A stretch of DNA of 10,252 bases from a virus (Duplodnaviria > Heunggongvirae > Uroviricota > Caudoviricetes): positions 1 through 10,252 of IMG/VR virus record IMGVR_UViG_2778261533_000005; one strand, written 5' to 3'. The notes below the pieces were generated by a model. It was given only the letters and a program-made list of their open reading frames with translations. It was not told the origin of the DNA and searched no databases. Shown one piece after another: positions 1 to 10,252 of this stretch. Made by a program: the position numbers and the translations under genes. Numbering within the stretch: the stretch's first letter is position 1; the number at the start of each line of letters is the position of its first letter.

Positions 1-390
1 TTACTCTTTTTTCTCCGTATCTACATCGGGTTCATCAGCAAATAGCTTGCCCTGCATCCGATCCAGTTCTTCTTTTCTTACCCGCTTAACCACGCTGTAG
101 ACCCACTGAAGCGAAACACCAAATTTGCGGGCCAGTTCATGGTGGTTACGTCCGTTAAACCCCCTGAAGATTTCCCGGTCGCGCTGACTGACCTTCCATA
201 CCATGCCCATCGGGAAATAAACGTTTTGCCCGCCCCAGACCTGCATCATGCGGTTCGCGACGGCCTGACCAATCTGGTCGGCAATTGCGGGCTCAATATC
301 AATAATCTCGCGAACGGTCTCAGAGGTATGCTGTGCCAGTTCCACCAGGAGTTCCGGCCCTTTACTTCGAAACTGATTCAGGTCGCTCAT
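1..390 (-). CDS. mor: Mor-family transcriptional activator (Mu middle operon regulator-like), 129 aa, complete
   Basis: ATG at 390..388 and TAA at 3..1. The translation has a GGQNVYFPMG motif and a C-terminal FNGRN..ELARKFGVS...VY..VKR helix-turn-helix-like region, recalled as typical of Mu Mor/C activators. Sits directly downstream of, and overlaps, the gemA-like gene as in Mu. Confidence 0.75.
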   Translation of the reverse strand: MSDLNQFRSKGPELLVELAQHTSETVREIIDIEPAIADQIGQAVANRMMQVWGGQNVYFPMGMVWKVSQRDREIFRGFNGRNHHELARKFGVSLQWVYSVVKRVRKEELDRMQGKLFADEPDVDTEKKE

Positions 391-814
391 GTTTTACTCC
401 CGCAGCTCTGCGTTGCCACTTCTTCAGTTTCTCAATAACACTGCTTGCCTGTTCAGTATTGAGCCAGCGCAGGGCGCTGATGCCCGTTTCCCGCTTGATC
501 CACCGCGCTAATGCATTTTCTGAACGGTCACGAACAATGCCGGCAGCAGCCATTTCAAGCCATAGCGCACGGATTTTCCTGGATTGCGGATGGTTATCCA
601 GCGGTAAACCGGAGCTGGCTTTTCCTGCAGGCCTAACGCGAAAGCCTTTCCTTTTCATGGATTCCAGCACGCAGTTTAGTTGTGTGGTATCCATTCCTTT
701 GGTTGAGGCTTTACCGGTCAGCCCCTGTAACATCTGGCGGTAGGTGTCTTCATCCATACCCAGTTCATTACGGGCAATATGAATGAGCTGGATAAGACGT
801 TGTTTAGTCATCAT
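362..814 (-). CDS. gemA: GemA-like regulatory protein (Mu gp16 / DUF1018 family)
   Basis: ORF track gives 362..853. I prefer the tandem ATG ATG at 814..809 because a GAAGGAG Shine-Dalgarno lies about 6 nt upstream and the start overlaps the stop of the upstream small ORF. N-terminal LIQLIHIARNELGMDEDTYRQML..TGK...M....L..VLE.MKRKGF matches the pattern I recall for Mu GemA. Its 3' end overlaps the mor start. Confidence 0.75.
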   Translation of the reverse strand: MMTKQRLIQLIHIARNELGMDEDTYRQMLQGLTGKASTKGMDTTQLNCVLESMKRKGFRVRPAGKASSGLPLDNHPQSRKIRALWLEMAAAGIVRDRSENALARWIKRETGISALRWLNTEQASSVIEKLKKWQRRAAGVKHERPESVSK

Positions 815-1019
815 CGTTGCTCCTTCTGCCTGCATCACCGATATAATCGACATATAAAGGAAGTGCCACAGGCCAGCACAGGAACATCACTGACCAGCTA
901 ATCCAGTAACCGGCACCACTGTAACGTGAATAAAACCCTGAACGGCGGTGCAGTTCAGCAGTACACCAACCGACAAAACAATACCAGAACAGGGCACATA
1001 CAACAGATTCAGTCGTCAT
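804..1019 (-). CDS. small hypothetical membrane protein (about 71 aa, two hydrophobic segments), acidic C-terminus
   Basis: ATG at 1019..1017 inside the longer ORF-track frame 804..1175. Translation MTTESVVCALFWYCFVGWCTAEL...YWISWSVMFLCWPVALPLYV has two predicted hydrophobic helices. Stop TAA at 806..804 overlaps the gemA start codons (ATGATGACTAA). Start choice is uncertain. Confidence 0.4.
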   Translation of the reverse strand: MTTESVVCALFWYCFVGWCTAELHRRSGFYSRYSGAGYWISWSVMFLCWPVALPLYVDYIGDAGRRSNDDD

Positions 1020-1239
1020 TCTGAATATCCCCCCAACTGATATGAATATTACGGGCAGCAATGACAGGGTCTTTATTCCACCATGCACCTGACATGTATT
1101 TTTCAACCTGTTCGCGTCCGGCAATAACACCAATTGTGATCCCCGGCCTGACGTTCTTAAAAAAGGCGCGGGCAAAAAGGTATCTGGCAGATATTCGGCA
1201 GGCTTTTAATTTCCGGCTGTTACCTGATAACGTAATCAT
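1009..1239 (-). CDS. hypothetical small phage protein (76 aa)
   Basis: ATG at 1239..1237 overlaps the stop of the upstream 119-aa ORF (ATGA), and its TGA at 1011..1009 lies 8 nt inside the next ORF. Operon-style coupling is the only support; no family recognised. Confidence 0.4.
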   Translation of the reverse strand: MITLSGNSRKLKACRISARYLFARAFFKNVRPGITIGVIAGREQVEKYMSGAWWNKDPVIAARNIHISWGDIQNDD

Positions 1240-1595
1240 CTGGCCTCCAGTTTCTGCTGTTCCCGCCCACTGACCGGTCGGTGCAGTCTGACGTTCTGCC
1301 CTTCTCGAAACCCCGCATAGCGCGAGGCGTCGCCATTGCGGCTTCTTCCCGGTTTACGCGCCCTGGTGGTTTGCGTCTGCGGGTATTTATGTTCCAGCCA
1401 CTGCTGCATCAGTTCACGTTCGTCATCGGTCAGGGCGAAGGACTGTATTTCACTGATAACGGCCAGCACCCAGCCTTCAGCAAACTGGTCTCCACGGCTG
1501 GTGCGGGTGGTGGTTTTTATTCTTTTGTTCTGTGCACTGATATACTGCTGACGCGCCTTTTTCAGCTGCCGGAGCTGTATCGGGTGCTGTTCCAT
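1236..1595 (-). CDS. hypothetical phage early-region protein (119 aa), first gene of the minus-strand operon in this window
   Basis: ATG at 1595..1593 and TGA at 1238..1236 overlapping the next start. The translation is basic and helical-looking with no low-complexity runs. No family recognised. Confidence 0.45.
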   Translation of the reverse strand: MEQHPIQLRQLKKARQQYISAQNKRIKTTTRTSRGDQFAEGWVLAVISEIQSFALTDDERELMQQWLEHKYPQTQTTRARKPGRSRNGDASRYAGFREGQNVRLHRPVSGREQQKLEAR

Positions 1596-1724
1596 CGCCT
1601 TCCGGGGTGGCGCAGTTCGTCCGTAACGGCGTCAACTATGCGAAACAGGCGCAGTCTGTACTCCAGACCACTATCAGTGCCGTTCGGGTGGCGCAGAAAA
1701 TGAAGGGTAACCGGCGTCAGCGAT

Positions 1725-2822
1725 GTGCTGACGCCGGTATTCACTCTGTGGTATCTGCAGAAAAACATCACCTCTGATATCGCGCCTTATGTCACCCGTG
1801 TGGTCTGGAGCGATAACATCAAAAATGAGTCCGATACCATTGAGGTGGAGCTGGACGACACCGATGGCCGCTGGCTGGATAAGTGGTATCCGGGCAAGGG
1901 TGACACGCTGACGCTGAAAATGGGTTATCAGGGCGAGAAACTGCTGTCCTGCGGTACATTCTCAATAGACGAGATCGAAGTGAGTTCGCCCGCGTCCGTT
2001 GTCGCTATCCGTGGGGTGGCCACCTCGGTTAACAGTGCTCTGCGGACTAAATCCAGCCGTGGTTTTGAGAACACCACGCTGGCAGCTGTTGCGGGGCGGA
2101 TTGCCAGAAAGCACCGGCTGAAACTGGTGGGCAGCATTGAGTCCATCAGAATCGACCGGGTGACCCAGTATGCTGAAACCGACGTGGGTTTTCTGCGCCG
2201 GCTGGCCAGCGAGTATGGTTATGCAGTGAAAGTGGTCAGTGACCAGTTGATTTTTTCTCATCTGGCCACACTGCGCAGTCAGGAGCCGGTCAGGCAGTTA
2301 AAACCGCAGGATGTGGCCTGCTTTTCCCTGCGTGACACCATCAACCGGGTCTATAAATCTGCAAAGGTAAAACACCAGAAAAGCAGCAGTAAAAAACTGA
2401 TCGTCTACGAAGCTGATGGTGGTACCCGTGAAAGCGACAAAAAGCTCAAAGGCGGTAAGGTTACCAGCGCTGACTCACTTAAAGTTAACAGCCGCGTCAG
2501 CGACCCGGACAGTGCCCGGATTAAAGCGGATTCAGCACTGGCCAGACATAACGAATACCAGCAGAACGGCTCCCTGACGCTGACGGGAACGCCTCAACTG
2601 ACAGCAGGCAACAAAATTGAACTGGTGGGCTTTGGACAGTTATCCGGTCCATGGCTGATAATCACTGCCCGCCATGCGTTTGAGCGTAACAGCGGCTACA
2701 CCACAGAGCTGGAAGTGGCACGGGGGCCAGTCACAAGAGGGAAAAAACAAAAAACTCAGAAACTCACGGTTTATCACCCGGATGGCAGTACATCGACGGT
2801 GATTAAGGAGAAGAAAAAATGA
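1725..2822 (+). CDS. baseplate hub protein (P2 gpD / Mu gp44-like, 'late control D' family); start uncertain, possibly 5'-truncated
   Basis: 365-aa ORF whose first in-frame start is GTG at 1725. It contains an ELDDTDG motif and the overall length expected of P2 gpD-type hubs. Its TGA at 2820..2822 overlaps the gpV ATG (ATGA). The nearest in-frame upstream stop is at 1701..1703. Confidence 0.7.
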   Translation: MLTPVFTLWYLQKNITSDIAPYVTRVVWSDNIKNESDTIEVELDDTDGRWLDKWYPGKGDTLTLKMGYQGEKLLSCGTFSIDEIEVSSPASVVAIRGVATSVNSALRTKSSRGFENTTLAAVAGRIARKHRLKLVGSIESIRIDRVTQYAETDVGFLRRLASEYGYAVKVVSDQLIFSHLATLRSQEPVRQLKPQDVACFSLRDTINRVYKSAKVKHQKSSSKKLIVYEADGGTRESDKKLKGGKVTSADSLKVNSRVSDPDSARIKADSALARHNEYQQNGSLTLTGTPQLTAGNKIELVGFGQLSGPWLIITARHAFERNSGYTTELEVARGPVTRGKKQKTQKLTVYHPDGSTSTVIKEKKK

Positions 2823-3346
2823 CTGGTGTCACCCGTCAGATCGGTACGGTCAGTGCCGTTGATGCCGACAGGGTTCAGGCCCGCGTTCGTCTGCCTGAAT
2901 GCGATAATCTGCGCACAAACTGGCTTAACGTGCTACAGCGCAATACCCAGGATAACAAGGATTACTGGCTCCCTGACGTGGGGGAGCAGGTTGAGGTGCT
3001 GCTCGATGCCAACGGCGAGGATGGTGTTATTCTGGGCGCGGTGTACTCAGACGTCGATAAACCGCCGTTCAGTGATAAAAACGTCCGGGGTACGAAATAC
3101 GCTGATGGCGCGGAGTTCAGTTATAACCGCGCGACCCATACGCTGACGGTCAGAGGAGGTATTGAGCGTATCGTGGTGGAGGTTGCCGCTGATATCTCTC
3201 TCAAAGGGAAAAACCTCGACCTCACGGGAGTTACCACGATCAACGGCCCCGCGACACTCAATGGTGATCTGGAAATCAACGGAAGCGCCCATGCAACGGG
3301 TAACATATTTGCTGATGGTCAGAACTCTAATCACCATTCCCATTGA
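2819..3346 (+). CDS. baseplate spike / assembly protein V (P2 gpV, Mu gp45-like)
   Basis: ATG at 2819 preceded by AAGGAG at 2805..2810. 175 aa with an N-terminal OB-fold-like region and a C-terminal repetitive beta-rich region (TLTV..., LDLTGVTTINGPATLNGDLEINGSAHATGNI) typical of gpV spikes. Position between hub and gpW fits. Confidence 0.85.
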   Translation: MTGVTRQIGTVSAVDADRVQARVRLPECDNLRTNWLNVLQRNTQDNKDYWLPDVGEQVEVLLDANGEDGVILGAVYSDVDKPPFSDKNVRGTKYADGAEFSYNRATHTLTVRGGIERIVVEVAADISLKGKNLDLTGVTTINGPATLNGDLEINGSAHATGNIFADGQNSNHHSH

Positions 3347-3402
3347 ACCTTCTTAAACGCCTTTAATATCGGCGCTTACTTCCCGGGGGCAATACTGCCT
3401 CC

Positions 3403-3750
3403 ATGAAAACGACCTCAGTATTCTGGCAACCAGCTCTGCAGGCTCCCGGCGAAATCGTCCGGGGGCTGGATGATATCCGGCAGTCCATCCAGATCATCCT
3501 GCGGACTCCCCGCGGCAGCGACCCGCATCGCCCGGAGTTCGGCAGCAATCTGCACCTTTATATCGACTGGCCTGTCGACCGGGCCATTCCGCATGTGGTT
3601 CGCGAATCCGTCGATGCCATCAGGCGCTGGGAACCCCGCTGCCAGCTTATGTCGGTTAAACCCGCCGTCGACGGCGAACATCTTACGCTCCGGGTGAGCT
3701 GGAAAGGCTCAGACGGACAACCCCGTACTCAGGAACTGCTATGGCGCTGA
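3403..3750 (+). CDS. baseplate wedge protein W (P2 gpW / T4 gp25-like)
   Basis: ATG at 3403. 115 aa, the size and position expected for gpW/gp25 family, with the IRQSIQIIL.T..G....P.FGS.L motif characteristic of that fold. Stop TGA 3748..3750 overlaps the gpJ start. Confidence 0.85.
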   Translation: MKTTSVFWQPALQAPGEIVRGLDDIRQSIQIILRTPRGSDPHRPEFGSNLHLYIDWPVDRAIPHVVRESVDAIRRWEPRCQLMSVKPAVDGEHLTLRVSWKGSDGQPRTQELLWR

Positions 3751-4844
3751 CAGAACCCGATTTTATTGAACGCGATGCCGATAAAATCACGGCAGAAATG
3801 ATTGCGAAGTATGAAGCGGATACCGGAAAAACGCTGTACCCGGCACAGGCTGAACGTCTGCTGATTGACCTGTGGGCCTATCGCGAAATGCTGGTCAGGG
3901 TGGCAGTACAGGAGGCGGCGAAGCAGAATCTGGTCGCTTTTTCCCGTGAGCCGATGATTGATTACCTCGGTGAACTGGTCGGTGTATACCGCCTTGCCGC
4001 GCAGCCTGCCACCACCACACTTCAGTTCTCTGTGGATGAGGCACTGGCCATTGATGTGCTGATCCCGGCAGGCACCCGCGTCAGCGCTTCCGACAGTATT
4101 ATTTTTGCCACCGATACAGACGTGGTGCTGAAGGCCGGATTGCTGCTGGTCAATGTCACGGCCACCTGTACCGAGCCGGGTACCGCTGGCAACGGCTGGC
4201 AACCGGCGCAGGTCAGTCAGTTACTCGATGAGATTGATAACATTGACCTGCTGGTGACCAATCTGACGGCCAGCTCTGGCGGTTCAGAGCAGGAAGACGA
4301 TGACCGGCTCCGGGAGCGTATCAGGCTGGCCCCGGAGTCATTCACCAATGCCGGAAGCCGTGGTGCATACCGTTTTCATGCTATGGGGGCGCATCCCGGC
4401 ATTGTCGACGTTGCTGTTCTTTCTCCCGTTCCCGGCACTGTCGAGCTGTATCCGCTGCTCAGCACTGGTCTGCCGGACAGCAGTATCCTCACTCTGGTAG
4501 AGAGTTTCTGTTCTGACGAAAAAGTCAGACCACTCACTGATACCGTGCGGGCTAAAACACCTGTTCAGGTGGATTACACCATTGAAGCCAGGATTACGAT
4601 CTATCGTGATCAGGATGCAAGGTTGGTAAAGGACAACGCTAACAGCGCCATACAGAACTGGGTGGCATCCCGTACCGCCACGCTGGGGCGCGATATTGTT
4701 CCCAGCCAGATTATCAGCGTGTTGTCCGTTTCCGGGGTGTACCAGGTCGAACTGGTGACACCGGCACTGAGGGTGGTGGCAGAAAACGAATGGGCAAACT
4801 GTACGGCGATCACTCTTAACATGACCGGGGTGTCCGATGGCTGA
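3741..4844 (+). CDS. baseplate protein J (P2 gpJ / Mu gp47 / T4 gp6-like)
   Basis: ATG at 3741 with AGGAA upstream. 367 aa, located between gpW and gpI; the sequence character is typical of Baseplate_J family. Stop overlaps the gpI ATG at 4837. Confidence 0.85.
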   Translation: MALTEPDFIERDADKITAEMIAKYEADTGKTLYPAQAERLLIDLWAYREMLVRVAVQEAAKQNLVAFSREPMIDYLGELVGVYRLAAQPATTTLQFSVDEALAIDVLIPAGTRVSASDSIIFATDTDVVLKAGLLLVNVTATCTEPGTAGNGWQPAQVSQLLDEIDNIDLLVTNLTASSGGSEQEDDDRLRERIRLAPESFTNAGSRGAYRFHAMGAHPGIVDVAVLSPVPGTVELYPLLSTGLPDSSILTLVESFCSDEKVRPLTDTVRAKTPVQVDYTIEARITIYRDQDARLVKDNANSAIQNWVASRTATLGRDIVPSQIISVLSVSGVYQVELVTPALRVVAENEWANCTAITLNMTGVSDG

Positions 4845-5415
4845 GGTGCTACAACTCCCGCCACCGCTTGAGGGTGATATCAGTCTCAGAACGCTGGGAA
4901 GACTGGCCGGACGGCTGGATAACATCGACCTGAGCGTACTGATGGTCGGTCTCGTCGATATTGTCGACAGTTCCGCGCTGCCATGGCTTGGCGAGCAGTT
5001 CTCGCTGTTCGGCGATGGCTGGGAACTGGCGGAATCGGACGATGTACGCCGCATGCTTATCAAATCCGCTATCGAGCTACACCGCTATAAAGGAACACCG
5101 TGGTCAATCCGGGAAATTATCCGCCGTTTTGGCTTCGGCGAAGTGGATCTGATTGAAGGTACGGGGCAGATTGGCTATGACGGCAGACACACGTACAACG
5201 GGCTTTTCGTCCATGGTGATGCACAAGCCTGGGCAGTCTATCGCGTCATCCTTCAACAACCCATCACTAACGATCAGGCGGCGCTGTTACGTCAGACGCT
5301 TGCTGCCTTTGCTCCGGCTCGCTGTCATCTGGCAAGTCTGGAATATCAGTCTGTCGCCATTCGATACAACAGTACTACCCGTTATGACGGTAGTTACAAC
5401 CACGGGAGCAGTTAA
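4837..5415 (+). CDS. tail/baseplate protein I (P2 gpI / Mu gp48-like, e14 YmfQ-like)
   Basis: ATG at 4837 overlapping the gpJ stop. 192 aa, immediately upstream of the tail-fibre gene as gpI is in P2 and Mu. Confidence 0.8.
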   Translation: MAEVLQLPPPLEGDISLRTLGRLAGRLDNIDLSVLMVGLVDIVDSSALPWLGEQFSLFGDGWELAESDDVRRMLIKSAIELHRYKGTPWSIREIIRRFGFGEVDLIEGTGQIGYDGRHTYNGLFVHGDAQAWAVYRVILQQPITNDQAALLRQTLAAFAPARCHLASLEYQSVAIRYNSTTRYDGSYNHGSS

Positions 5416-5417
5416 TT

Positions 5418-6371
5418 ATGGCAAATCTACCCGAAACCCCGCAGTGGGAAAGCGGCATCTACCAGATTGAGGTCTCTGACCCCGTTCTGGGCGGACCTGA
5501 CGGAATTTCTAACCGCCAGGCTAAACAACTGGCCAGCCGAACGTCATACCTCAAACAGAAGGTCGAAAAAAGCGGAACAGACCTGGCTGCACATATCGCG
5601 GCAGTTGACCCGCATACCCAGTACGCGACGAAAGCCAGTCCGACATTCACCGGCACACCAACAGCACCTACACCTGCAAATGGTGATAACAGCAAAAAGC
5701 TGGCGACGACGGAGTTTGTGGCCAAAGCACTTGCGGCACTTGCAGGCAGCGCCCCTGAGACACTGGATACGCTTAAAGAGCTGGCTGACGCTCTCGGTAA
5801 TGATCCAAACTTTGCGACTACGGTACTGAACAAGCTGGCGGAAAAGCTGGCTAAAGACCAGAACGGCGCAGATATTCCTGAGCCTGCGCTGTTTGTCAAA
5901 AACCTTGGTTTGGGGGAAGGCTCTGCACTACCTGTTGGTGTGCCTGTTCCATGGCCGTCAGCCACACCGCCAACAGGGTGGCTGAAATGTAACGGTGCAG
6001 CATTTTCTTCTGAAATGTACCCCAATCTGGCAAAGGCTTACCCCACGAATAAATTACCGGATTTACGGGGCGAATTTATCCGTGGCTGGGATGACGGACG
6101 AGGTATTGATGCAGGACGAGAGATACTTTCATTTCAGGAAGGCACTATCGTCTCCGGTTTTGATGATAATGATACTGGGGATATCAGTTCACTTAGCTCA
6201 ACACAATACGGATTTGGTGACACTCTAACCTCTAATCAATGGGGGGCCATAAATGGCAAAAAGTGGATATTTGATGCATCCAGTAAAGGTGCACAAAAAT
6301 ATGACTGGTGGGCTTATGTATCAGCTCGTCCGCGTAATATTGCATTTAATTACATCGTAAGAGCGGCATAG
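5418..6371 (+). CDS. tail fibre protein: constant N-terminal part (about residues 1-163) fused to the currently expressed variable C-terminal cassette 1
   Basis: ATG at 5418 with GGGAG at 5404..5408. The N-terminal region contains the side-tail-fibre motif SPTFTGTPTAPTP...ATTEFV...LDTLKELADALGNDPNF. The C-terminal region from about residue 164 is a tail-collar-type domain (PVGVPVPWP....GWLKCNGAAFS...YP.L...LPDLRGEFIRGWD) ending in ARPRNIAFNYIVRAA. The crossover site lies in-frame at 5893..5918. Confidence 0.9.
   Translation: MANLPETPQWESGIYQIEVSDPVLGGPDGISNRQAKQLASRTSYLKQKVEKSGTDLAAHIAAVDPHTQYATKASPTFTGTPTAPTPANGDNSKKLATTEFVAKALAALAGSAPETLDTLKELADALGNDPNFATTVLNKLAEKLAKDQNGADIPEPALFVKNLGLGEGSALPVGVPVPWPSATPPTGWLKCNGAAFSSEMYPNLAKAYPTNKLPDLRGEFIRGWDDGRGIDAGREILSFQEGTIVSGFDDNDTGDISSLSSTQYGFGDTLTSNQWGAINGKKWIFDASSKGAQKYDWWAYVSARPRNIAFNYIVRAA
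5893..5918 (+). other. 26-bp recombination crossover site 1 (gix/hix/pix-like), at the constant/variable boundary of the expressed fibre gene
   Basis: TTGTCAAAAACC-TT-GGTTTGGGGGAA: two 12-bp half-sites matching 8 of 12 positions as an inverted repeat around a TT core. The left half closely resembles the TT.TC.AAAACC left half I recall for Hin/Gin sites. The 14 bp from the core onward recur at the 5' end of every cassette. Confidence 0.7.
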
Positions 6372-6390
6372 AAACGTTGGTTTGGGGGAA
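6365..6390 (+). other. crossover site 2 (direct orientation), 5' end of cassette 2
   Basis: GGCATAGAAACG-TT-GGTTTGGGGGAA. The right half and TT core are identical to site 1. The left half is supplied by the conserved 3' end of cassette 1 and contains its TAG stop. Confidence 0.65.
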
Positions 6391-6915
6391 GGCTCGGCGC
6401 TGCCCGTTGGTGTCCCCGTTCCGTGGCCCTCAGCCACACTGCCAGCAGGGTGGCTGAAATGTAACGGCGCAGCATTTTCTTCTGAAATGTACCCCAATCT
6501 GGCAAAGGCTTATCCTACAAATAAACTACCGGATCTACGGGGTGAGTTTATCCGTGGCTGGGATGACGGACGTGGCGTGGATGCGGGGCGAGCCTTGCTA
6601 AGTCTTCAGGATGACTCTTTTGAAGCGCACAGGCATGAGTCATTTTTTTATGCGGGTATTTCACGCAATGAAATCCCATTAAAAAATCTTCCAAGTTCAG
6701 ACGAGATGCTGACTTTAAGTTCCACAACTAATGCCTTGTCACCGGACGGTATTGATGCCACCAATTCGTTAATTGGTAATGACGATTACAACTGTCTTAT
6801 CGAAGGGAATAAAAATAACAAACGAACAGCAACGGGTCTAAGTACCAGTATTGTCGGCGCAGCAGAAACCCGCCCCCGTAACATTGCGTTTAATTACATC
6901 GTAAGGGCGGCATAG
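6382..6915 (+). CDS. silent alternative tail-fibre C-terminal cassette 2 (collar-type domain, no own start or RBS)
   Basis: The frame is open from the crossover core (6379) to TAG at 6913..6915. The track's M is the TTG inside the site. The N-terminal 70 aa are near-identical to cassette 1, followed by a unique about 90-aa core and the conserved ETRPRNIAFNYIVRAA end. It would be in frame with the constant region if joined at the core. Confidence 0.75.
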   Translation: MGEGSALPVGVPVPWPSATLPAGWLKCNGAAFSSEMYPNLAKAYPTNKLPDLRGEFIRGWDDGRGVDAGRALLSLQDDSFEAHRHESFFYAGISRNEIPLKNLPSSDEMLTLSSTTNALSPDGIDATNSLIGNDDYNCLIEGNKNNKRTATGLSTSIVGAAETRPRNIAFNYIVRAA

Positions 6916-6934
6916 AAACGTTGGTTTGGGGGAA
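6909..6934 (+). other. crossover site 3 (direct orientation), 5' end of cassette 3
   Basis: GGCATAGAAACG-TT-GGTTTGGGGGAA, identical to site 2. Confidence 0.65.
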
Positions 6935-7393
6935 GGCTCGGCGCTGCCCGTTGGTGTGCCTGTTCCGTGGCCCTCAGCCACACCACCAACGGGCTGGCTG
7001 AAATGTAACGGTGCAGCATTTTCTTCTGAAATGTATCCCAAACTGGCAAAAGCTTACCCCACCAATAAATTACCGGATTTACGGGGTGAATTTATTCGTG
7101 GCTGGGATGATGGGCGGGGAATTGATAATAGACGCAACCTACTGTCTGCACAGTCTGACACTATTCAGAATATAGTTGGCACTTTTGGACGAACTCAGCT
7201 TTTTAAAGATGCTTTAAATTCAGGGCCATTTAGTCAAACTGACTCTATATTATCAGTAGGCTTGCAACCAACTGAGAGTATTGAAGGATATGGCGCCTCT
7301 GTATGGACATTCGACGCCTCTCGCTCAGTTCGCACAGCATCTGAAACACGTCCTCGTAACATTGCGTTTAATTACATCGTAAGGGCGGCATAG
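6926..7393 (+). CDS. silent alternative tail-fibre C-terminal cassette 3
   Basis: Same architecture: conserved collar N-terminus, unique core, ETRPRNIAFNYIVRAA, TAG at 7391..7393. No ATG or Shine-Dalgarno. Confidence 0.75.
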   Translation: MGEGSALPVGVPVPWPSATPPTGWLKCNGAAFSSEMYPKLAKAYPTNKLPDLRGEFIRGWDDGRGIDNRRNLLSAQSDTIQNIVGTFGRTQLFKDALNSGPFSQTDSILSVGLQPTESIEGYGASVWTFDASRSVRTASETRPRNIAFNYIVRAA

Positions 7394-7412
7394 AAACGTT
7401 GGTTTGGGGGAA
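7387..7412 (+). other. crossover site 4 (direct orientation), 5' end of cassette 4
   Basis: GGCATAGAAACG-TT-GGTTTGGGGGAA. Confidence 0.65.
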
Positions 7413-7994
7413 GGCTCTGCACTGCCTGTTGGTGTGCCTGTTCCATGGCCGTCAGCCACACCGCCAGAGGGATGGCTGAAATGCAACGGCGCAGCATTTT
7501 CTTCTGAAATGTACCCCAATCTGGCACAGGCTTACCCCACGAATAAATTACCGGATTTACGCGGTGAATTTATCCGTGGCTGGGATGACGGACGTGGCGT
7601 GGATGCGTGGCGAACATTACTGAGTGCTCAGGATTTTGCGTTTGAAGATCATGCTCTGGGGCTACCTACCAATCAGGGATATGCAGGTATTGAGAAAGGT
7701 AGCACTGAAAATGATGTTTATGCCGCTTTCTCTGATGGCATGCACTATACAGGGAATGTAACCAGTAGCGGTCAATGGGATGATTATTCTCAGTCAAAAA
7801 TTTATATCCGTAGTGATGGTAAGCCTGTCGGAAATAATATTGAGTTAGCTAACTCAAGTGAGGCTTTGCGTTCTTCTTTGCGTACTTATAGAGCCAGTAC
7901 AGGATGGTATAACCCAGGACTAAACAAACCTAAAACAGCTACAGAAACACGTCCGCGCAACGTTGCTTTTAATTACATCGTAAGAGCCGCATGA
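7404..7994 (+). CDS. silent alternative tail-fibre C-terminal cassette 4 (largest, 196 codons)
   Basis: Conserved collar N-terminus, unique about 115-aa core, ETRPRNVAFNYIVRAA, TGA at 7992..7994. Confidence 0.75.
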   Translation: MGEGSALPVGVPVPWPSATPPEGWLKCNGAAFSSEMYPNLAQAYPTNKLPDLRGEFIRGWDDGRGVDAWRTLLSAQDFAFEDHALGLPTNQGYAGIEKGSTENDVYAAFSDGMHYTGNVTSSGQWDDYSQSKIYIRSDGKPVGNNIELANSSEALRSSLRTYRASTGWYNPGLNKPKTATETRPRNVAFNYIVRAA

Positions 7995-8013
7995 AAACGT
8001 TGGTTTGGGGGAA
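7988..8013 (+). other. crossover site 5 (direct orientation), 5' end of cassette 5
   Basis: CGCATGAAAACG-TT-GGTTTGGGGGAA. The left half is a variant because cassette 4 ends with TGA rather than TAG. Confidence 0.65.
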
Positions 8014-8481
8014 GGCTCTGCACTGCCCGTTGGTGTGCCTGTTCCGTGGCCCTCAGCCACACCGCCAACAGGGTGGCTGAAATGTAACGGTGCAGCATTT
8101 TCTTCTGAAATGTACCCCAAACTGGCAAAGGCTTATCCTACAAATAAACTACCGGATCTACGGGGTGAGTTTATCCGTGGCTGGGATGACGGGCGAGGGA
8201 TTGATGCAGGACGTGCTTTATTAAGCTTTCAAACTGGGATGCTGGAAAAACACCGCCATATTGTTGTAGCTAACGATGGGTATGACACAAAGGATGAATG
8301 GGAGTTGGCCACAATTTTCAAAAAAACATATACACAAGGACGGGGACTTGATGCCACAAGTACAGGCGGGAGTCTGATCCCATCACCGACACTTCATTCA
8401 CGAGGGAGTATTGGTAACACTGGTGGTAGTGAAACTCGCCCCCGCAATATCGCATTTAACTATATCGTGAGGGCGGCTTAA
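8005..8481 (+). CDS. silent alternative tail-fibre C-terminal cassette 5
   Basis: Conserved collar N-terminus, unique core, ETRPRNIAFNYIVRAA, TAA at 8479..8481. No crossover site follows it; the tfa gene converges 6 bp downstream. Confidence 0.75.
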   Translation: MGEGSALPVGVPVPWPSATPPTGWLKCNGAAFSSEMYPKLAKAYPTNKLPDLRGEFIRGWDDGRGIDAGRALLSFQTGMLEKHRHIVVANDGYDTKDEWELATIFKKTYTQGRGLDATSTGGSLIPSPTLHSRGSIGNTGGSETRPRNIAFNYIVRAA

Positions 8482-8487
8482 TTATAC

Positions 8488-9105
8488 TCAACTGGCTGCT
8501 GCCAGAGGCATTTCCGGCCAGTTGATATCCGGTGCAGTGCTGATGTCAGTCGCATTAAGCGTATCTATGAAATCAAGCACGGCGTTTAGTTTTTCCGTCT
8601 CCTGGGGCGTCAATCGGCGTCCGGCTCGTAGTTTGAGATTAATAAGCTCAACAGATGCCATTGCCTGTTCCTCAAGTTGCTGACGATGCGCTCCGGCAGC
8701 TTCCAGTTCTGCTGCGTGCTGTCGTCTCGTATCTGTCACCCAAATCTCACCATCCCAGACATCATAGATAGTAGCTGGCTGTTTCACCGTCGTATCAGGA
8801 GGGTAATCTCCCGGTTGTGTGATTTGCACAGCGTTACCATTCTCTGTGCTGTAAACCGTTTCGCCTCTGTGGTCTGGAACATATTTCCAGATGTTCTGGT
8901 CGGTATCACGACAGACAGCGAAGCCGGGGCGTTTTTCTGGTGGCGCGTCAATGCATGAGTGAGCCGGAATTCCAACACCATAAGCGAGATACTCAACAGT
9001 GGCAGAGAGATATTCACGGTTTTCAGCATCGTAGTTATAAACGGTAATATCGCCTGCAGTTATAGCGATACCATTCTGATCAAGTACTGCAGCAGCATTA
9101 TTCAT
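8488..9105 (-). CDS. tail fibre assembly protein (Tfa / Mu U-like chaperone)
   Basis: ATG at 9105..9103 overlaps the TAA of the inverted cassette (TAATG). 205 aa. The C-terminus DTLNATDISTAPDINWPEMP resembles the D.TSTAQDIEWPALP end I recall for E. coli TfaE-type chaperones. Confidence 0.85.
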   Translation of the reverse strand: MNNAAAVLDQNGIAITAGDITVYNYDAENREYLSATVEYLAYGVGIPAHSCIDAPPEKRPGFAVCRDTDQNIWKYVPDHRGETVYSTENGNAVQITQPGDYPPDTTVKQPATIYDVWDGEIWVTDTRRQHAAELEAAGAHRQQLEEQAMASVELINLKLRAGRRLTPQETEKLNAVLDFIDTLNATDISTAPDINWPEMPLAAAS

Positions 9106-9608
9106 TAAGTAGCCCTTACAATATAGTTAAACGCAATATTACGGGGGCGGTTTTCCGTTCCTGTATTCCCTCCGTTGGCACCTAATCTATAAACACCACG
9201 AGTGCCAATAGCACGTAGTGAAGATGGAACTTTTACACCTGACTCATCTGTTTTAACAATCCCGCCATCACCGTATGTAGCCAGTATACCAGGGTTTGTT
9301 CCTGCACGGGTGTTGTTTGCGGCAAGCCCTTCACCAGTCCATAACTCCATATAATGAATATGATCTATAACCGAATGTGATTGTGCATTAAGCAAGGAAC
9401 GCCCTGAATCAATTCCCCGCCCATCATCCCAGCCACGAATAAACTCACCCCGTAAATCCGGTAATTTATTGGTGGGGTAAGCCTTTGCCAGTTTGGGGTA
9501 CATTTCAGAAGAAAATGCTGCGCCGTTACATTTCAGCCACCCTGTTGGCGGTGTGGCTGAGGGCCACGGAACAGGCACACCAACGGGTAGTGCAGAGCCT
9601 TCCCCCAA
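9105..9608 (-). CDS. silent alternative tail-fibre C-terminal cassette M in inverted orientation, followed by tfa
   Basis: Minus-strand frame open from crossover site M to TAA at 9107..9105. N-terminus near-identical to the other cassettes (GEGSALPVGVPVPWPSATPPTGWLKCNGAAFSSEMYPKLAKAYPTNKLPDLRGEFIRGWDDGRGID), unique core, ends ENRPRNIAFNYIVRAT. No own start codon. Confidence 0.8.
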   Translation of the reverse strand: MGEGSALPVGVPVPWPSATPPTGWLKCNGAAFSSEMYPKLAKAYPTNKLPDLRGEFIRGWDDGRGIDSGRSLLNAQSHSVIDHIHYMELWTGEGLAANNTRAGTNPGILATYGDGGIVKTDESGVKVPSSLRAIGTRGVYRLGANGGNTGTENRPRNIAFNYIVRAT

Positions 9609-9625
9609 ACCAACGTTTTCGTCTT
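9600..9625 (-). other. crossover site M (inverted relative to sites 1-5)
   Basis: Plus strand reads TTCCCCCAAACC-AA-CGTTTTCGTCTT, the reverse complement of AAGACGAAAACG-TT-GGTTTGGGGGAA. It is the only site with its asymmetric core inverted, so it is the only direct inversion partner for site 1 in this configuration. Confidence 0.7.
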
Positions 9626-9679
9626 AACTCCCACCTATACCAGCTATGTATTTTTAACAAAACAAAGAGGATATTTTTC

Positions 9680-10252
9680 ATGCAAATTGGCTACATTCGT
9701 GTGTCAACAAATGACCAGAATACAGATTTACAACGAAACGCACTGAACTGCGCAGGATGTGAACTGATTTTTGAGGATAAAATCAGCGGAACAAAGTCAG
9801 CCCGACCGGGATTGAAAAAGCTGCTCAGAACGTTATCAGAAGGAGATACGCTCGTTGTCTGGAAGCTGGACAGGCTGGGCAGAAGCATGAAACACCTCAT
9901 CACTCTTATTGAGGAACTGCGGGAAAAAGGGGTTAACTTCCGTAGTCTTACAGACAGCATTGATACGTCAACACCCATGGGACGTTTCTTTTTTCACGTC
10001 ATGGGGGCTTTAGCGGAAATGGAGCGTGAATTAATAGTTGAACGAACACTGGCCGGACTTGAAGCAGCACGTGCACAGGGGCGTATTGGTGGACGTCGTC
10101 CGAAACTGACAAAAGAGCAACATGAACAAATAGCAAGGCTGATCAAAAATGGCTATAGCAGGAAACAGTTGGCAATTATTTACGATATCGGTATATCGAC
10201 GATTTATCGTTATCACCCTGTAGAGGAACTTCAAACTCAAGCTGATTTGTAA
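9680..10252 (+). CDS. site-specific DNA invertase, serine recombinase of the Gin/Pin/Cin/Hin family
   Basis: ATG at 9680 with AAGAGGA at 9664..9670. N-terminal IGYIRVSTNDQNTDLQRNAL holds the catalytic-serine motif. Long identical stretches to the Gin/Pin sequences as I recall them (GDTLVVWKLDRLGRSMKHLI, SLTDSIDTS.PMGRFFFHVMGALAEMERELI.ERT.AGL.AAR), plus a C-terminal helix-turn-helix. TAA at 10250..10252. The ORF-track start at 9485 is an upstream in-frame extension, rejected. Confidence 0.95.
   Translation: MQIGYIRVSTNDQNTDLQRNALNCAGCELIFEDKISGTKSARPGLKKLLRTLSEGDTLVVWKLDRLGRSMKHLITLIEELREKGVNFRSLTDSIDTSTPMGRFFFHVMGALAEMERELIVERTLAGLEAARAQGRIGGRRPKLTKEQHEQIARLIKNGYSRKQLAIIYDIGISTIYRYHPVEELQTQADL

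Follow-up and report, generated by a model that had tools for sequence, protein, structure and literature searches.

Serine DNA invertases of the Gin group recombine only oppositely oriented sites. In the Gin, Hin and Cin systems, a Fis-dependent recombinational enhancer located within the invertase gene restricts the reaction to inversion. The Min switch of p15B comprises 240 isomers. It has been characterized as a serine-recombinase shufflon which produces variable tail fibres, while in the R64 shufflon (Rci) and the Rin shufflon of a Bifidobacterium phage multiple inversions choose the C-terminal end of an adhesin (PMC6109161). In Phi2 of E. coli EC958, inversion at a crossover site was caught in PacBio reads (PMC4134206). 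Here, we analyse a locus on a stretch of 10,252 nucleotides of a virus of the Caudoviricetes (IMG/VR record IMGVR_UViG_2778261533_000005, positions 1 to 10,252; the whole stretch is hereafter the window). The locus appears to be a shufflon of the Min type, a multiple-inversion switch for the tail fibre of a phage, in which six alternative tips are accompanied by one tail-fibre assembly gene, tfa. The system is no novelty: switches of this type go back to p15B, and the very proteins encoded here turn up on hundreds of contigs.

As a rule, each tail-fibre chaperone is assigned to a single tip, and in host-range engineering a tip is usually transferred along with the chaperone gene that belongs to it. 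We propose, with a probability of roughly 0.6, that the single Tfa of this locus is a generic chaperone serving all six tips. If this is true, whole libraries of engineered collar tips could make do with the same Tfa. Furthermore, because multi-cassette arrays of this kind have tfa antisense to the fibre gene in half of their isomers, they allow the strictness of the need for Tfa to be examined in nature.

Organization of the switch

The components of the switch are listed below. The tail-fibre gene is called H, the five tandem cassettes of the plus strand C1 to C5, and the inverted cassette M. E denotes the two-headed segment (C5> <tfa <M).

5418-5899, plus strand: constant 5′ part of H, within the open reading frame 5418-6371 and downstream of the baseplate genes D′, V, W, J and I
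5900-5918, plus strand: crossover site 1, in frame within H at the join of the constant and variable parts
5919-6371, plus strand: body of C1 (type t7), fused to H, collar domain E 4.1e-14
6372-6915, plus strand: site 2 (6372-6390) and silent cassette C2 (open reading frame 6382-6915), with an HRH motif
6916-7393, plus strand: site 3 (6916-6934) and silent cassette C3 (open reading frame 6926-7393), type t3
7394-7994, plus strand: site 4 (7394-7412) and silent cassette C4 (open reading frame 7404-7994), a rare type
7995-8481, plus strand: site 5 (7995-8013) and silent cassette C5 (open reading frame 8005-8481), type t0, one head of segment E
8488-9105, minus strand: tfa, 205 amino acids, Pfam Caudo_TAP E 8.7e-26
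9105-9618, minus strand: cassette M (open reading frame 9105-9608, 167 amino acids, collar PF07484 E 4.7e-15) with the inverted site (9600-9618)
9619-9679, unstranded: 61-bp spacer separating the last crossover site from the start of the invertase gene
9680-10252, plus strand: serine DNA invertase of the Gin/Pin/Cin/Min (Din) group, 190 amino acids, Resolvase E 1.7e-51 and HTH_7

Residues 1-185 of the invertase match the Gin structures 3UJ3 and 4M6F at E about 1e-90. The motif AAAC(C/G)TTGGTTTGGGGGAA has six exact matches, five of them direct (5900, 6372, 6916, 7394 and 7995) and one inverted (9600-9618), for a chance expectation of 0. As seen in an alignment of the six site regions, each site leads into the same reading frame, GEGSALPVG... 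The core and the 197-base repeat which follows it are the same as at the EC958 Phi2 site.

All six cassettes carry a collar domain (Pfam, E 4e-14 to 5e-15), share about 200 bases at the start and about 45 at the end, and terminate in RPRN(I/V)AFNYIVRA. The tandem repeats measure roughly 300 bases and are 74-88% identical. Being fused to H, C1 is the tip predicted to be expressed at present.

On the minus strand, the stop codon of M (TAA, 9107-9105) overlaps the ATG of tfa (9105-9103) at base 9105, which gives TAATG as read from the sequence. C5 and tfa converge, their stop codons being 6 bases apart. Throughout the plus-strand tandem the gap between cassettes is 10 bases, which leaves no space for a gene, and tblastn with Tfa as query, covering the window in six frames, yielded no further tfa (next best match after the gene itself, E 0.37). 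A hidden or degenerate tfa after each tandem cassette was rejected on both grounds. The preliminary description of this DNA, which had reported six cassettes with tfa only after the inverted M, coupled by TAATG, and none after the five tandem ones, is thus correct in every detail according to Pfam, the sequence and tblastn, and its concern about overlooked tfa-like frames is settled for the window. It had also stated that the expressed C1 fibre has no co-oriented tfa downstream, and we indeed find tfa antisense to the expressed fibre gene in the sequenced isomer.

The repertoire of the switch was computed by an exhaustive search of the permitted inversions, starting from the window arrangement and using only sites in opposite orientation. 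Five direct sites and one inverted site give exactly 240 reachable arrangements. All 240 obey the same grammar: a plus stack, then E in either orientation, then an inverted stack, then the invertase; a functional cassette is therefore always joined to H. In 120 of them, tfa is co-oriented with H, namely in 24 of the 48 isomers expressing each of C1 to C4, in 24 of 24 for M and in 0 of 24 for C5. Only M is ever immediately followed by tfa and coupled to it; for the other cassettes a co-oriented tfa stands at a greater distance downstream. The other 120, including the sequenced isomer and every isomer expressing C5, have tfa antisense. Whenever this is the case, the inverted stack, M and tfa all point leftward.

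Arrays and simple switches

About 300 IMG/VR loci were retrieved with the window cassettes and annotated by purpose-built hidden Markov models (HMMs). Among the first 80, about 65 are simple two-arm switches, P2-like or e14-like, with the layout H-collar> Tfa> <Tfa2 <short non-collar tip and then a Pin-like invertase starting MLIGY. Their collar tip is accompanied by a Tfa of 200 residues and their short non-collar tip by a different Tfa of 142 residues. In these about 65 switches, a coupled tfa stands behind each collar cassette.

The arrays hold 2 to 10 collar cassettes, and their carriers are Mu-like prophages, one P2-like phage and P1-like plasmids; the relatives L004, L010, L026, L095 and L005 illustrate the range of cassette numbers. 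The tandem repeats of about 300 bases are likely substrates for cassette gain and loss by homologous recombination. In about 25 arrays there is a single Tfa, always in the two-headed segment, with one exception. In this exception, L038 (7384-11247; on the contig that also holds L183), the two-headed segment and tfa are both present twice, in the layout H> c> <T <c c> T> <c invertase, with a short spacer with divergent flanking sites between the two-headed segments, so a second chaperone copy can be retained. The complete 40-kb prophage of E. coli 8178 contains no second tfa, and a scan of genome contigs with Tfa as query gave no match.

All array-type loci have an invertase starting MQIGY and a conserved spacer of 61 bases, and the spacer of the simple switches is unrelated to it (comparison of upstream regions, L001-L066). 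Multi-cassette arrays thus seem to be associated with a single clade of invertases, whether the host element is Mu-like, P2-like or P1-like. The layout with a single tfa is, by all indications, real but normal for the array family. The C5-tfa-M module itself is present in Mu-like prophages and in the P2-like phage L095, and a diverged version of it is found in P1-like plasmids.

Tfa and the collar frame

The tfa product matches Pfam PF02413 (Caudo_TAP) at residues 80-200, and PF28596 (Caudo_TAP_N) is among the precomputed Pfam hits. The profile of the Tfa family matches Mu Tfa (U; PDB 5YVQ_B) at E 6.6e-7, in the C-terminal 68 residues only. A single-sequence search of the PDB with the window Tfa gave no real hit. 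In 2019, North et al. reportedly described the C-terminal domain of Tfa as a common assembly module and the N-terminal domain as the part which binds the fibre; the restriction of the profile match to the C-terminal 68 residues fits this view.

The N-terminal domain varies with little regard to the cassette. Domains of one cluster, which share at least 85% identity, occur alongside 13 cassette types. Conversely, M-type cassettes occur with three N-terminal variants, which are 100%, about 60% and about 36% identical to that of the window. Between loci with different cassette types, the Tfa N-terminal domains have a median pairwise identity of 70%, compared with 27% for the variable parts of the cassettes and 90% for their frames. 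The identity of the N-terminal domain has a Spearman correlation of 0.10 with that of the variable part and of 0.66 with that of the frame. The domain therefore appears to be uncoupled from the variable part and to track the conserved collar frame. In the common collar-type tips of enterobacteria, at least 13 unrelated receptor-binding inserts are found with one and the same type of chaperone.

In the structure 2XGF, the chain reportedly runs back from the tip and has its C-terminus within the collar, which would place the docking of Tfa in the conserved frame. Tips of the gp37 kind which differ in receptor specificity keep a conserved adjacent chaperone (PMC9659904), and the Tfa of lambda can substitute for T4 gp38 (PMC9659904, PMC3004832). 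A literature search, with the original p15B papers outside it, found no paper on one chaperone for many cassettes.

The cassettes with and without their own tfa

All cassettes are intact and in frame with the crossover site. For three types which lacked a tfa in the first sample, the ratio of nonsynonymous to synonymous substitution rates (dN/dS) of the variable part is 0.22 (t3, C3), 0.12 and 0.21 (t7, C1). The C5 type has a dN/dS of 0.10 within arrays, and the tethered types, which have their own tfa, range from 0.08 to 0.18. We thus observe purifying selection on the cassettes.

A given cassette type can be tethered in one locus and untethered in another. The C5 type (t0) is tethered in 12 simple loci and untethered at 15 array positions. 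A homologue of C1 (variable part 71% identical) has its own overlapping tfa in the simple switch L182, as have homologues of C2 (95-96% identical over the whole cassette) in the simple switches L235-L246 and of C3 (variable part 75% identical) in the simple switches L101-L105. For C4, the nearest relatives are only 56-58% identical and tfa-linked. The M type, in turn, is untethered in the P1-like arrays L005, L008, L010 and L011. Cassette type does not seem to decide tethering, and the untethered cassettes appear to be neither pseudo-cassettes nor a chaperone-free class.

These comparisons bear on several suggestions of the preliminary description. The idea that collar domains fold without a dedicated chaperone is not supported as a property of these cassettes, given the tfa-coupled homologues of C1, C2, C3 and C5 (71-96% identity) in simple switches. 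That M might be mechanistically distinct finds no support either, since it has the same fold as the others and its type occurs untethered in P1-like arrays. A comparison with related elements for cassette-linked tfa genes had also been recommended, and its outcome is divided: arrays keep one tfa, but the same cassette types are tfa-linked in simple switches.

The tips are not structurally uniform. M matches the T4 gp37 tip 2XGF at E 1.4e-19 and is aligned with it at both ends, including the collar, HxH and NIAFNYIVR. An HxH motif is present in M (HIH), C5 (HRH) and C2 (HRH), exactly where the needle of T4 gp37 has its metal-binding HxH, and is missing from C1, C3 and C4. C3 (and C1) is closer to the ‘short tail fiber’ PDB 9CUY. 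The tips would thus fall into two structural sub-kinds with a single collar frame and switch in common. As a predictor of the need for Tfa, HxH was rejected because tethered types without it and untethered types with it exist.

Isomers in related genomes

The exact Tfa protein is recorded on 841 contigs, of which ten genomic contexts were fetched. Nine contain intact arrays and one, L094, is disrupted in its cassette region (5603-7554). The evidence for isomers is a comparison between genomes and not of variation within one culture. The gene tfa is in sense to H in L087, L090, L092 and L096 and antisense in L088, L089, L091, L093 and L095. Isomers with tfa in sense are not in excess among the sequenced genomes, which is expected for silent prophages.

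The isomer grammar fits all nine intact arrays with the exact Tfa as well as all other arrays examined. In E. coli GCA_001902675.1 (L089), the same six cassettes as in the window (96-99% identity) form a different isomer with the order H-C5> <tfa <M, then C1, C4, C3 and C2, all inverted. L044 is a further isomer of the same segments. Insertion sites vary from genome to genome, and each of the types C1 to C5 occurs fused to H in some genome. Damaged relatives are also found: IS1 lies just after a cassette in L053 (8503-9200), and in L011 (8982-9420) tfa splits into two HMM hits, possibly by a frameshift.

A proposed generic chaperone

In the model which we favour, the invertase would join one of six receptor-binding tips to the constant start of the fibre, which is 160 residues long. 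These tips share a collar frame of the T4 gp37/gp12 type, with about 66 conserved residues at the start, RPRNIAFNYIVRA at the end and a variable insert in between. We infer that the N-terminal fibre-binding domain of Tfa recognises this conserved frame and not the variable insert, so that one copy would be enough for every tip. When E lies in the M-then-tfa direction, tfa would stand downstream of H in one terminator-free operon, whatever cassette is fused. In the antisense isomers, the source of Tfa may be a promoter which escaped detection or another prophage, or fibre assembly may be poor; such a cost of these isomers, like the read-through of the operon, is part of the model.

Four observations weigh against this model. 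First, physical linkage and shared ancestry confound and inflate the correlation of the Tfa N-terminal domain with the frame. Second, C5 is never co-transcribed with tfa yet is strongly conserved, which sits awkwardly with a strict requirement in cis. Third, no promoter was found for antisense tfa, and half of the isomers are therefore left with no visible source of Tfa. Finally, the prophage in the window has lost about 27 kb, and nothing in it is under current selection for fibre assembly.

Alternatives and the supply of Tfa

The generic chaperone has to be weighed against a Tfa which serves only M, or only the tethered position, while untethered cassettes fold unaided or with host chaperones as T4 gp12 does without gp38. 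The conservation of C5 despite its separation from tfa is in line with this more restricted role, as are the wide distribution of single-tfa arrays and the sequenced isomers without an excess of tfa in sense. Two further points in its favour come from the T4 fibres: the collar protein gp12 requires gp57A but not gp38, and the requirement of gp37 for gp38 can be bypassed by mutation (PMC3004832); in addition, the gp37-like HxH is missing in C1 and C3. However, tethering changes from locus to locus for the types of C5, C1, C2, C3 and M alike, HxH does not predict it, and the Tfa N-terminal domain does not track the cassette type. We consider a Tfa restricted in this way rather unlikely.

The other alternatives concern how Tfa is supplied. 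No terminator-like site was found between cassettes and tfa has its own upstream AAGGG, which makes a supply by read-through plausible, we infer, in the 120 isomers with tfa in sense. Upstream of tfa in the inverted orientation, two consensus scans, with activator-dependent late promoters outside their scope, detected no sigma-70-like promoter. The promoter which the preliminary description had proposed to look for there did not rise above background. Its suggestion that the single Tfa acts in trans from its own promoter holds in so far as compatibility is concerned, the N-terminal domain following the frame and not the cassette type, but fails for the promoter. The 61-bp spacer likewise shows no convincing promoter in either direction.

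Chaperone supply might itself depend on orientation. In this case, either the switch varies both the tip and its assembly, a hidden second layer of phase variation with fibre-less or poorly fibred particles, or undescribed convergent flank promoters keep the shared chaperone expressed in every isomer; we view this as unlikely.

Continuous supply can be phrased more specifically: a leftward promoter in the flank, in the 61-bp spacer or the invertase start, would read the inverted stack, M and tfa, and the late fibre promoter would act from the other side. Such a leftward promoter in the constant flank would suffice for all 120 antisense isomers, given that the grammar keeps the inverted stack, M and tfa co-oriented whenever tfa is antisense, and the arrays share a distinct conserved spacer and an invertase variant which simple switches lack. 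Beyond this array-specific spacer, nothing backs the promoter. On the minus strand near the spacer no sigma-70-like site exceeds 8/12 matches, and such weak matches occur at background density; the conserved spacer may merely hold the promoter and ribosome-binding site of the invertase itself. Production of Tfa in every isomer by this route is, in our opinion, improbable.

Lastly, that C1 to C5 are decaying pseudo-cassettes and M with tfa the sole working unit is hardly credible: although the window prophage is a deletion remnant and no silent cassette has its own start signals, all cassettes are intact and in frame with the crossover site, the dN/dS values of 0.10-0.22 resemble those of the tethered types, and each type is fused to H in some genome, so this reading, which the preliminary description had named as one that would undo its claim, was rejected and the claim stands.

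Neighbouring genes and state of the prophage

Upstream of H, the window contains a baseplate operon of the Mu/P2 type. Over the conserved start of each cassette, short antisense open reading frames of 45-67 amino acids (MPDWGTFQKKML..., MGYISEENAAPLHF...) are found. They recur because the underlying DNA is repeated, and nothing suggests that they are genes.

1725-2822, plus strand: gpD-like gene (D′) of the Mu/P2-type baseplate operon, Pfam Phage_GPD
2819-3346, plus strand: V, baseplate operon
3403-3750, plus strand: W, baseplate operon
3741-4844, plus strand: J, baseplate operon
4837-5415, plus strand: I, baseplate operon, Pfam Tail_P2_I
5896-6033, 6350-6505, 6894-7049, 7372-7527 and 7973-8128, minus strand: antisense open reading frames
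9485-9627, plus strand: antisense open reading frame

The constant part of H is 99% identical to that of intact prophages. Positions 1-1572 of the window represent the distal end of an early arm (DUF2786, GemA, Mor) and match Mu-like prophages at 97-99.6%. From position 1708 onward the sequence continues with gpD from about its 41st base, and 135 bases of other sequence (1573-1707) lie at the join. Compared with the relative in E. coli 8178, a complete 40-kb Mu-like transposable prophage with a DDE transposase, a MuB-like ATPase, Gam, GemA, Mor and a single tfa, about 27.4 kb are missing, including the transposase, repressor, lysis, head, sheath, tube and tape measure genes. The deletion junction is absent from complete E. 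coli genomes. Judging from these losses, the prophage of the window is a deletion remnant which cannot make particles; the question of Tfa supply therefore applies to its intact relatives.

Comparison with known systems

The Min switch of p15B, a P1-related phage-plasmid, offers the closest likeness. In both cases a serine invertase lies beside overlapping invertible segments whose sites head alternative 3′ ends of one fibre gene. The host element differs, since the window holds a Mu-like transposable prophage (or its remnant) and not a P1-like plasmid. P1-like plasmids with the same layout have an invertase region which is 89% identical in DNA to that of the window. In these P1-like arrays the tfa-bearing cassette is of type t2, whereas in the window it is M.

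The G/Gin switch of Mu, C/Cin of P1 and P/Pin of e14 resemble the locus in their Gin-like invertase, in a 26-bp AAACC-NN-GGTTT site placed in frame at the constant/variable join, and in a Tfa coupled to the variable part. However, they have two sites, two tips and two mirror-image chaperone genes, compared with six sites, six tips and one chaperone gene in the window.

T4 gp37/gp38 and lambda Stf/Tfa are linked to the locus by M, which resembles the gp37 tip; in the family of that tip a conserved chaperone gene comes directly after the fibre gene, whose receptor-binding insert varies (PMC9659904). In contrast to the window, these systems have no inversion switch and one tip per chaperone, and the HxH of gp37 is lacking in C1 and C3. 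The R64 (Rci) and Bifidobacterium (Rin) shufflons also choose one among several C-terminal ends by multiple inversions, but they use tyrosine recombinases and have no chaperone of the Tfa type.

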